DNA from: Thermovirgaceae bacterium | Lineage (GTDB): Bacteria > Synergistota > Synergistia > Synergistales > Thermovirgaceae | Assembly: GCA_046542505.1 (NCBI GenBank) | Contig: JBKHBH010000050.1 | Location: 1-14,347 of the forward strand | Length of the DNA: 14,347 nt | Direction: 5' to 3' | Program-made: the position numbers and the translations under genes | The notes under the pieces: generated by a model | Databases searched by the model: none | What the model was told of the DNA's origin: nothing | What the model saw: the letters and a program-made list of their open reading frames with translations, nothing else | Part shown: in pieces, positions 12,055 through 14,347 of the stretch | How positions within the stretch are numbered: the first letter of the stretch is position 1 | How the letters are laid out: the number at the start of each line of letters is the position of its first letter

Positions 12055-13104
12055 CTAAAAGAGGTATCCCATGGGGCAGTCTCCGTCAGCGGCGGCCTCG
12101 ACGACATCGCGATAGAGAGCGAAGGCAGTCTGCTTGGGGCCGGTTCCCCCTCCCGCCACGAACACATCACCCAGGGCATCGGTGACAAAAAGGACACCGT
12201 TGGCGGCACCATTGACATTGGAAAGCGGGTGGGATCCGGGAAGCACTTCAGGTTTAACAGTGATACGCGCCTCTTTTCCCGCTGCCTCGACACGGGCGAC
12301 AAGGCGGACGTTCCCCCCGGAACGGCGGGCCTTTCGGATCATGGCACCGGAGACACTGCGTATGCCCTCAACGTGGACATCCTCAAGGCTCACAGGCGGC
12401 GCCCCCATGAGGACCTGGGCAATGATCGCCGCTTTCACGGCACTGTCAGTGCCCTCCACGTCAAAAAACGGCTCCGGTTCGGCATACCCCTTCCGTCTCG
12501 CATCCAGGAGGGCCTCGTCGAAGGATGATCCCTGGGCCATAAGATCAAGGATGTAATTGCAGGTGCCGTTGACAACACCTTCACAGGAAAGAATACGGGT
12601 TCCCTGCAAGCAATGCCTGACAAAAGAAAAGAAAGGCGTTCCCGCCAGAACCGTTGCCTCGAAAAGAAAGGGTACTCCCCGTTTTCGGGCAAGCTCCTCG
12701 AGTTGCCTGTAGGACAAAAAAAGCGGCCCCTTGTTGGAAGTGACCACCGCCGCCCCGCGGTCGATGGCGGTTCTCATGAATTCGAAAGCCGCTTTCGGCT
12801 GGGCAATGTTGGTGGTCGTACATTCAACGAGCATGTCGTAATCGGCGAGTTCCAGAAGGTCTTTGGCGGAACGAAAGGACTTCCGGTCCATCCCGCTGTC
12901 CAGATGCCCTGTCGAGGCCTCGTAACGAAGGACATCTTCAAGGGACAGCCCCGAAGGATCGTAAAGACATCCCCTGGTTCTCGTTCCGATGCCGACGATC
13001 TCCCCTTCAATGCCAAAGCGGGAGCGGAGCCAGGGGCGCCGTTCGGCAAAAAGCTCGCAGAAAGCCTTCCCCACATTTCCGAAACCGAGGAGCAGGATTC
13101 TCAC
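12055..13104 (-). CDS. hom: Homoserine dehydrogenase (short form, no ACT domain)
   Basis: GFGNVG Rossmann motif, VVTSNKGP, FEATVLAGTP, NGTCNYIL and GYAEPEP..DVEGTDSAVK. Confidence 0.9.
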   Translation of the reverse strand: MRILLLGFGNVGKAFCELFAERRPWLRSRFGIEGEIVGIGTRTRGCLYDPSGLSLEDVLRYEASTGHLDSGMDRKSFRSAKDLLELADYDMLVECTTTNIAQPKAAFEFMRTAIDRGAAVVTSNKGPLFLSYRQLEELARKRGVPFLFEATVLAGTPFFSFVRHCLQGTRILSCEGVVNGTCNYILDLMAQGSSFDEALLDARRKGYAEPEPFFDVEGTDSAVKAAIIAQVLMGAPPVSLEDVHVEGIRSVSGAMIRKARRSGGNVRLVARVEAAGKEARITVKPEVLPGSHPLSNVNGAANGVLFVTDALGDVFVAGGGTGPKQTAFALYRDVVEAAADGDCPMGYLF

Positions 13105-13147
13105 CTGTAATCCACCCTTCCGTGAAGCGGTTCTGTCCTGCTCATCA

Positions 13148-13186
13148 ATAATAACATTGTCTGAAGGTGGGGATTCGTGTTATATA
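13148..13186. promoter_or_regulatory. Divergent promoter region (hom leftward, wHTH gene-deoC rightward)
   Basis: Minus: TG-T-TATTAT (13148-13156). Plus: TTGTCT (13157-13162), 18 nt, TATATA (13181-13186) preceded by TG. Confidence 0.45.
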
Positions 13187-13259
13187 CAGGACATCAGAAC
13201 AAAAACGCACTTGCCCGAAATCAGCGGAAACGGTTTATCGTAATGGAAGGAGCTTTTAA

Positions 13260-13610
13260 ATGAACCCGGACACCACTATGCCTGACATGCCCGAAACCTG
13301 AGCTAAAATTACGGCGCGTCTCGTAGAGTCCGTTTCCCGGACGGCCCAGCTTGCCGCTGGGACGACGCCAGAACTCCAGCAGCTTTTCGAACGGTGGCTT
13401 TCGATCATTGCAGGAGAAATACAGAGAGAATCAAAAGTACAGGGAGTGCTCAATATCAAGGACATCGCCGAGCGGATAGGCATTGATGATACTTCCATCC
13501 TGTGTCTCGTCCAGTACCTCCACCGGCAGGGGAAAATATCCGTTACTGAAGTCAGGATCACGGAGGGTTGTGGAGAGAACAGGGAAATCTGCGGATGTCT
13601 GAAGGAATGA
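13260..13610 (+). CDS. 116-aa winged-helix-like protein with in-frame TGA at codon 14 (candidate selenoprotein; alternatively a nonsense pseudogene)
   Basis: SD AAGGAG 13247-13252, ATG 13260, TGA 13299-13301, then an uninterrupted frame to TGA 13608-13610: MNPDTTMPDMPET*AKITARLVESVSRTAQLAAGTTPELQQLFERWLSIIAGEIQRESKVQGVLNIKDIAERIGIDDTSILCLVQYLHRQGKISVTEVRITEGCGENREICGCLKE. Ends 10 nt before deoC. Confidence 0.75.
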
Positions 13611-13620
13611 GTGATATGAG

Positions 13621-14347
13621 ATGACTGACATCGAAATGCTGGCACAGAAAGCAGGGATCAAGGCGGCTCGGGCGGAGGCCGGCTTCTACGAAAAACCGGG
13701 GATCGACGAGATCCGTCACTCCGTAGACCATACGCTCCTGTCGTCCTCTTCTACGGAAGGAGACATCAAAAAACTTTGTGATGAAGCCCAAACCTACGGC
13801 TTCGCCGCTGTCTGTGTCCCCCCGCTCTGGGTCCCCTACGCCAGGAACTGCCTTGAGGGCAAATCCCAGAAGGTTGTCGCCGCCATCGCCTTTCCCCTGG
13901 GAACCCTTCCCGTTGAAGTAAAGGTCAACGAAATAGAGTGGGCACTCAAAAACGGCGCAGAAGAATTTGATGTGGTCGCCACCATATCCGACATTATCGA
14001 CGAAGACAGGCAGGCCGTACGGGAAGAGTTCCGCGCTCTCCGGGAAGTTACATCGGGCAGGTGCCTCAAGATCATCATCGAGACACCGCTTCTGAACGAC
14101 AGACAGAAGTTCCTTTGCGTCAATATCGCCGAACAGACCGGCGTCGACTACCTCAAGACCGGAACCGGCTTCGCCGGACCTGTCACGTTCTATGACGTGG
14201 CGTTCTTGAGAACCGTCGCCTCCGACAGCCTTCACGTCAAGGCTTCCGGAGGCATACGCACCCTCGTATCCGCCGGCATCCTTCGGGCCTTGGGCGCCGA
14301 CCGTCTCGGGGCGTCCCAGTCTACGAACTTCCTTCCCTTGCCCGAGC
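13621..14347 (+). CDS. deoC: Deoxyribose-phosphate aldolase (3' end beyond window)
   Basis: Hand translation gives VDHTLL, AAVCVPP, AFPLG, GAEEFDVV, LKIIIETPLL, YLKTGTGF (Schiff-base Lys), VKASGGIR and GADRLGAS. The frame is open to the window end and absent from the ORF track. Confidence 0.93.
   Translation, partial: MTDIEMLAQKAGIKAARAEAGFYEKPGIDEIRHSVDHTLLSSSSTEGDIKKLCDEAQTYGFAAVCVPPLWVPYARNCLEGKSQKVVAAIAFPLGTLPVEVKVNEIEWALKNGAEEFDVVATISDIIDEDRQAVREEFRALREVTSGRCLKIIIETPLLNDRQKFLCVNIAEQTGVDYLKTGTGFAGPVTFYDVAFLRTVASDSLHVKASGGIRTLVSAGILRALGADRLGASQSTNFLPLPE

Follow-up and report, generated by a model that had tools for sequence, protein, structure and literature searches.

Positions 13260-13610 of the analysed window, a 14,347-nucleotide stretch of contig JBKHBH010000050.1 from the genome of a Thermovirgaceae bacterium (Synergistota), very probably constitute one functional gene, which would code for a selenoprotein of 116 residues with SelB-dependent insertion of selenocysteine (Sec) at codon 14, an in-frame TGA. 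This conclusion was reached by comparative sequence analysis and agrees with the central claim of the initial annotation of this DNA, which had been made from the nucleotide sequence without database searches. It is supported by orthologues carrying cysteine (Cys) at the same position, by purifying selection on the reading frame, by the Sec machinery of the genome, and by confirmation of the bases of the TGA in other sequencing runs.

Reading frame and verification of the in-frame TGA

The start signals of the gene are those described in the initial annotation: the Shine-Dalgarno (SD) motif is separated by a spacer of 7 nt from an ATG (13260-13262), which is directly preceded by an in-frame TAA. 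Translation confirmed that 13 codons, the TGA, and 102 further sense codons follow one another in a single frame, which terminates with a second TGA at positions 13608-13610, and the distance of 10 nt between this stop codon and the ATG of deoC was found as claimed. In the read-through translation, residue 14 belongs to the peptide MNPDTTMPDMPET-U-AK, and its surroundings in this gene read PET-U-AKIT. Downstream of the TGA there is no in-frame ATG anywhere in the frame, as had been pointed out before. The first in-frame codon of the types ATG, GTG, or TTG is the GTG at position 13446 (codon 63), which would give an ORF of only 54 amino acids. Five other genes of the window (mgtE, rph, and those of GerMN, an amidase, and a beta-eliminating lyase) end in TGA, so that the genetic code is standard and not globally reassigned, again in line with the earlier reading.

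The bases of the TGA were verified by comparison with contigs from two other sequencing runs. The contig of run X2 covers positions 13100-13733 and that of run X3 covers positions 13159-13437, each with 0 differences from the window; X2 and X3 stem from a single study other than the likely source study of the assembly. The TGA is no assembly error.

An antisense ORF of 129 codons (13256-13645, minus strand) overlaps the whole gene and was regarded as a shadow ORF, based on the purifying selection acting in the plus-strand frame (see below). A promoter-like scanner match inside the gene (13282-13309) is not conserved in the congeneric genomes G001 or G002 and was treated as a chance match. The promoter and terminator scanner found no terminator, and nothing relevant was retrieved from Rfam for positions 13000-13700. 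The features of the region are listed in Table 1.

Table 1. Features in and around the predicted selenoprotein gene, in window coordinates.
Feature	Position	Strand	Basis
Shine-Dalgarno sequence AAGGAG	13247-13252	+	(A/G)GGAG at equal distance in all five congeneric orthologues
Predicted selenoprotein CDS, 116 codons including UGA-14, plus terminal TGA	13260-13610	+	Length and start context as in Cys-form orthologues
In-frame TGA, predicted to be read as Sec (residue 14)	13299-13301	+	Sec/Cys column; bases confirmed by contigs
Candidate SECIS hairpin, apical loop GUA (13323-13325)	13313-13334	+	Consensus fold of three TGA forms
Winged-helix-like domain (approximately residues 45-100)	13392-13559	+	AlphaFold2 model, structural matches
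C-terminal Cys-x-Cys (C111, C113)	13590-13598	+	Conservation in 34 family sequences
deoC (deoxyribose-phosphate aldolase), truncated at the 3' end by the window boundary	13621-14346	+	TIGR00126
Candidate sigma-70-type promoter, TTGTCT (13157-13162), 17 nt, TTATAT (13180-13185)	13157-13185	+	Conserved block

Orthologues and selection on the reading frame

A six-frame search detected the read-through frame in 36 of 61 related genomes, the window's own genome included, and a profile search identified a family member in 133 of 268 Synergistota genomes, with no match in the remaining 135. In all five other genomes of the genus, the frame is likewise 116 codons long and has the same SD-start context, which indicates that the arrangement is more than a product of chance. 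The initial annotation had called for a check of homologues for Cys at codon 14, and Cys (encoded by TGC or TGT) is indeed present at this column in the congeners G003, G004, and G005. The genome of the window (G000) and the congeners G001 and G002, that is three of the six genomes of the genus, carry TGA. The local sequences are PET-U-AK, SET-U-AK, and AET-U-AK in G000, G001, and G002, respectively, compared with AES-C-GK in G003-G005. Three metagenome contigs extend this series: L056 and L057, with 98.9% and 100% identity to the G002 gene, carry TGA. Cys is found in L055, whose identity to the G005 gene is 93.7%, and it also occupies the Sec column in the proteins P0002-P0004. In the alignment of 34 family sequences, this column contains U in 3, C in 15, L in 8, Y in 6, E in 1, and T in 1 sequence. 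The residue is thus not universally essential and is dispensable in many relatives, 16 of the 34 sequences having L, Y, E, or T. The Sec form is limited to one genus and to 3 of the 133 family-bearing Synergistota genomes. In-frame TGAs that had been flagged in two further genomes, G222 and G223, turned out to be the ordinary stop codons of these genes.

The expectation that standard gene callers miss or truncate the gene was borne out by the G001 orthologue, which is publicly annotated as a "hypothetical protein" of 67 amino acids (P0009). Two calls of 69 amino acids from other metagenomes (P0007 and P0008) share 76% identity with the C-terminal half of the predicted selenoprotein, and these two truncated calls may mark additional TGA-bearing lineages. 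In the three U forms, Sec is accompanied by M-P-x-M residues.

Conservation on both sides of the TGA, which had been named as a further check, was found as purifying selection upstream and downstream of this codon among the TGA forms. Among these three forms (the rows of G003 and G004, which were mis-registered by one codon, were left out), dN/dS amounted to 0.11, 0.10, and 0.24 for codons 15-62, at dS values of 1.22, 1.46, and 0.31, and to 0.23, 0.14, and 0.40 for codons 1-13. The low values for codons 15-62 rule out recent decay, and the selection on these codons, combined with the lack of a start codon before codon 63, makes a downstream restart implausible.

These data bear on two other explanations of the TGA. 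According to the first, which we regard as quite improbable, UGA-14 is a true stop codon that terminates a 13-codon leader, and translation of the protein body begins at a non-canonical start immediately behind the stop, giving a product that does not contain residue 14. The replaceability of this residue in the wider family would fit such an arrangement, as would the fact that the protein body is its most conserved part. However, codons 15-62 are under strong purifying selection even though no in-frame ATG, GTG, or TTG precedes codon 63, and the stop lies exactly on the Cys column of the sister species. Furthermore, it is always TGA and never TAA or TAG in all three species and both TGA-bearing metagenome contigs, the gene does not differ from the Cys forms in start, SD, or length, and a SECIS-like hairpin follows at the canonical distance. 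The second explanation, a nonsense pseudogene in which the TGA arose by mutation of a Cys codon in a gene undergoing decay, is very improbable: a single-base change would suffice to turn TGC or TGT into TGA, and many Synergistota genomes (135 of 268) have no match to the gene, but the TGA is common to three species at dS values of up to 1.5 (near saturation) with a downstream dN/dS of 0.10-0.24, the TGA forms contain no frameshifts or further stops, and the synteny with deoC has been retained.

Similarity between G000 and its congeners varies along the gene region. The flanks of G000 are closest to the Cys-form G005 (0.84-0.93 identity; positions 13230-13380 compared with loci L011, L012, and L013), and in a 90-nt segment centred on +74, which contains the TGA and the hairpin, G000 is nearer to the Sec forms G001 and G002 (0.82 versus 0.74). 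G005 shares the sequence "IAESCGK" with the outgroup G003/G004. This mosaic similarity suggests that the Sec codon plus SECIS may have passed between species by recombination.

Selenocysteine machinery and candidate SECIS element

The components of the Sec machinery whose presence the initial annotation had left to be confirmed were all detected in the genome, and all above curated cutoffs: tRNA-Sec (76.3 bits; anticodon TCA according to ARAGORN), selA (578.6 bits), selB (370.7 bits), and selD (345.3 bits). Genes with in-frame TGA codons other than the one described here are selD itself (U in SG-U-AAK), grdA (CFV-U-TAA), and grdB, of which both frames run on through TGA in the read-through translation (TST-U-GTC). 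These other selenoprotein genes of G000 are located on contigs C74 (L042), C95 (L058, L059), and C108 (L060). All five congeners, Cys-form species included, possess selA and selB. Like the genes of SelD, GrdA, and GrdB, the gene at 13260-13610 has a UGA within its frame that is matched by Cys in orthologues and closely followed by a hairpin, but its product differs from these proteins in being without a known enzymatic fold.

Bacterial SECIS elements are stem-loops located shortly 3' of the UGA, with a G in the apical loop. RNAalifold predicted a consensus hairpin for the three TGA forms that spans +14 to +35 relative to the U of the UGA. It starts 11 nt past the UGA, and its 4 lower pairs are separated by a bulged C from 5 further pairs, which are capped by a GUA triloop. 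In the SECIS elements of selD, grdB1, and grdB2 of the same genome, the stems start at +14, +14, and +13, respectively, and GGC triloops are found at +20/+21. The hairpin described here thus matches the start at +14, but differs in its longer stem and in its loop, which is GUA at +24. The grdA hairpin starts at +9 and has a loop of 9 nt. When folded in the same register, the U forms of G000, G002, and G001 reached -6.5, -9.6, and -8.0 kcal/mol, where the value for G000 includes a non-canonical U-U mismatch in the upper stem, compared with +0.7, +0.7, +3.5, and +1.9 kcal/mol for four congeneric Cys forms. Energies of 28 more distant family members ranged from -9.6 to +12.8 kcal/mol, and only one of these was at or below -6.5 kcal/mol.

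Several results limit the weight of this hairpin. The unconstrained fold of G000 has an energy of -4.3 kcal/mol, and the non-Sec relative L047 is comparable at -4.2 kcal/mol; the 81-nt region folds no better than shuffled sequences (z = -0.82). Part of the stem coincides with conserved R-L-V-E codons, so that the hairpin is not independent of the coding sequence. Among the three U forms, two substitutions keep the pairing and one breaks it, three related sequences being too few for an assessment of covariation. Owing to these points and the U-U mismatch, the assignment of the hairpin as a SECIS element was rated plausible, not demonstrated. In the proposed mechanism, the ribosome would start at the ATG at position 13260, the hairpin would recruit SelB carrying Sec-tRNA(Sec) to the UGA, and selenocysteine would be inserted as residue 14.

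UGA is the leakiest stop codon in bacteria. Together with the imperfect hairpin of the window, this property could be taken to favour a SelB-independent read-through, in which a near-cognate tRNA (Trp, Cys, or Arg) decodes UGA-14 at low efficiency, but we assign very little probability to this mechanism, as a complete Sec system is in use in this genome for selD, grdA, and both grdB genes, and as the pairing of Cys and TGA along with the hairpin geometry is what Sec recoding predicts.

Protein family and predicted structure

No Pfam model matched the read-through product above any cutoff, the best hit being winged-helix noise at 12 bits, and a search of NCBIfam release 20 at E-values of up to 1 yielded a single, sub-threshold match to NF045695 (TsoA). 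The family is specific for the Synergistota and consists of proteins of 116-130 amino acids. Invariant positions in the 34-sequence alignment (A1) are P37, W46, G74, R89, G91, and C111, whereas A19, R20, Q30, T36, I73, L87, and C113 are near-invariant, the last of these being present in at least 90% of the sequences.

The AlphaFold2 model (mean pLDDT 79) contains two long helices (residues 10-32 and 37-61), a helix-turn-helix (66-73 and 77-89), and a C-terminal tail. In a wide structural search, the model was matched best by winged-helix domains (Z 7.0-7.7, rmsd 1.8-2.0 A over 51-62 residues); all matches were generic, at Z of 7.7 or less, and were rated as possibly reflecting a common arrangement. 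Foldseek found nothing in the PDB at E ≤ 0.001, every E-value being 0.07 or weaker. A search of the ESM Atlas with the natural Cys homologue P0002 retrieved only the protein's own Synergistota cluster, short hypothetical proteins of Thermodesulfobacteriota, and generic helix-turn-helix clusters.

A profile search of 1.84 billion representative sequences returned 227 proteins at E ≤ 0.001. About 28 clusters of these match over the full length at E < 1e-25, and the weaker ones match the core only. When 66 superfamily matches were scanned with NF045695, 49 scored 50-129 bits; as this is below the 170-bit cutoff of the model, they are unnamed relatives or truncated calls. Some NF045695 matches are proteins of 86-88 amino acids that start exactly at profile position 61, and they resemble the products of TsoA genes that were cut short at their own Sec codon.

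Members of the wider TsoA-like superfamily (P0046-P0104) have methionine-rich N-terminal regions with MMxxMM repeats and, ahead of the core, an invariant Cys in the motif "P-M-x-M-C". The initial annotation had pointed to a Cys in small hypothetical proteins with an "ATPE...LFEEW" segment, at about the position of residue 14. Such a Cys does exist, but in the superfamily it is located 4 residues past the Sec column and corresponds to T18 of the present protein. The methionine-rich N-termini of the relatives and the M-P-x-M residues of the U forms may hint at soft-metal chemistry. FeoC-like proteins (PF09012) and similar small proteins whose tails are rich in Cys likewise combine a winged-helix fold with Cys residues outside the helix-turn-helix, and the superfamily relative P0048 reaches the gathering score of FeoC (22.4 versus 21 bits). 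FeoC has a Cys-rich wing, and the Cys pattern and the two long N-terminal helices of the protein described here are unlike those of FeoC.

Relationship to TsoA

TsoA, the "LULAXC motif selenoprotein", is represented by the NCBIfam model NF045695 (Haft and Tolstoy, 2025, mSystems 10:e0141724, as cited in PMC13188914). The read-through product scores 38.2 bits with this model, compared with a cutoff of 170 bits, and its residues 16-90 align to profile positions 69-143 of the 144 positions of the model. A true TsoA above the cutoff was found in none of the 268 Synergistota genomes. By contrast, alignment of A1 with the alignment of TsoA and its superfamily by hhalign gave a probability of 99.5% (E 3.7e-23, 89 columns). 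The initial annotation had stated that the protein matches no recognised selenoprotein family. This holds insofar as the protein does not belong to TsoA, but has to be amended because its core is homologous to that of TsoA.

Both are small proteins with the same core, which consists of a helix, a helix with the motif "TPE..LF..W", and a winged-helix-like domain, and TsoA, too, is a selenoprotein with Sec located N-terminal to this core. In 80 TsoA loci of Thermodesulfobacteriota, an in-frame TGA occurs 5 codons before the start at profile position 61 ("MGEGVDP") in 78 cases, and the Sec context is L-U-L-A-E-C in 75. The LULAXC motif is absent from the present protein, where Sec14 lies approximately 11 residues nearer to the core than the Sec of TsoA, as judged from an extension of the hhalign register. 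The two Cys residues of TsoA (that of LULAxC and that of "QMC") have no counterpart here either, the second being aligned with T18. Conversely, the C-terminal CxC tail is found only in the Synergistota family and neither in TsoA nor in the wider superfamily. The genomic surroundings differ as well: TsoA is encoded directly downstream of an ArsR-family gene in all 10 loci sampled from the 80, the operon expected for TsoA comprising an ArsR-type regulator together with tsoB and tsoC, whereas the gene described here is flanked by hom, in divergent orientation, and by deoC. Finally, the TsoA loci come from Thermodesulfobacteriota and the family described here from Synergistota. Homology of the cores without homology of the Sec positions argues for an independent acquisition of Sec. 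Judging from these alignments, the predicted protein would be a selenoprotein of the TsoA superfamily with an independently placed Sec, and it is no member of TsoA itself.

In the curated models searched, the only trace of this selenoprotein is the sub-threshold TsoA match in NCBIfam release 20, and the literature searched, which did not extend to the primary TsoA paper and the deep-Sep and BSepDB supplements, contained no description of this Synergistota family. The text of the review PMC13188914 makes no mention of winged, helix-turn-helix, DNA-binding, or transcriptional regulator.

Genomic context

The gene diverges from the homoserine dehydrogenase gene (hom), and deoC, which was identified by a TIGR00126 score of 185 bits (cutoff 117 bits), is located directly downstream. 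Of the 28 family loci that could be assessed, 21 have a DeoC-family gene next to them in the same orientation, at distances of -42 to +29 nt downstream. The remaining seven, which come mostly from another family of the order, are bordered by different genes, and in six further family loci the sequence ends before the downstream neighbour can be judged. Based on this arrangement, deoC is a probable operon partner of the predicted selenoprotein gene. Contigs of the metatranscriptomic libraries X6 and X7, with approximately 97% identity, cover positions 13450-13686, which comprise the 3' part of the gene and extend across the 10-nt gap into deoC. They are compatible with co-transcription of the two genes but no proof of transcription, and as they do not include the TGA, expression across the TGA region is not shown by them.

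Upstream of the gene, a block at positions 13148-13190 ("ACATTGTCT...ATTCGTGTTATATACAG") is conserved in all seven genus-level sequences amid diverged intergenic DNA, and it is duplicated around an insertion in G003/G004. This block is probably the promoter of the pair formed by the gene and deoC and could also hold an operator, although the candidate promoter hexamers within it were not listed by the consensus promoter scanner.

Possible function and implications

Compared with the superfamily, the Synergistota family has lost the invariant Cys that corresponds to T18 here, and some of its members have a Cys, or the predicted Sec in this genus, located one turn of the helix before that position. 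An invariant C-terminal Cys-x-Cys tail has been gained. Tentatively, and as a possible rather than a probable function, Sec14, which is located near the start of helix 1, may form a redox-active or soft-metal/metalloid site together with C111 and C113, in a small sensor, regulator, or carrier that is co-expressed with deoC. A more far-reaching interpretation, which we consider unlikely, would combine the independent origin of Sec in this family with a role of Sec14 and the CxC tail as the sensing centre of a regulator that binds DNA and controls the deoC operon, and with a Sec codon and SECIS that form a recombining module among the congeners. If true, the protein would be a transcription factor that senses through selenocysteine.

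With Sec14 very probably decoded as proposed, Sec would have been recruited on two or more occasions by proteins with the TsoA-type core, at positions that differ but lie shortly ahead of this domain. The segment in front of the domain would thereby stand out as the chemically active end of the superfamily. In practical terms, the gene is missed or shortened by annotation pipelines. The three TGA-form and three Cys-form species, which belong to one genus and share the same gene neighbours, would offer a natural series for studying the benefit of Sec over Cys and the way in which a SECIS element arises inside a coding sequence.
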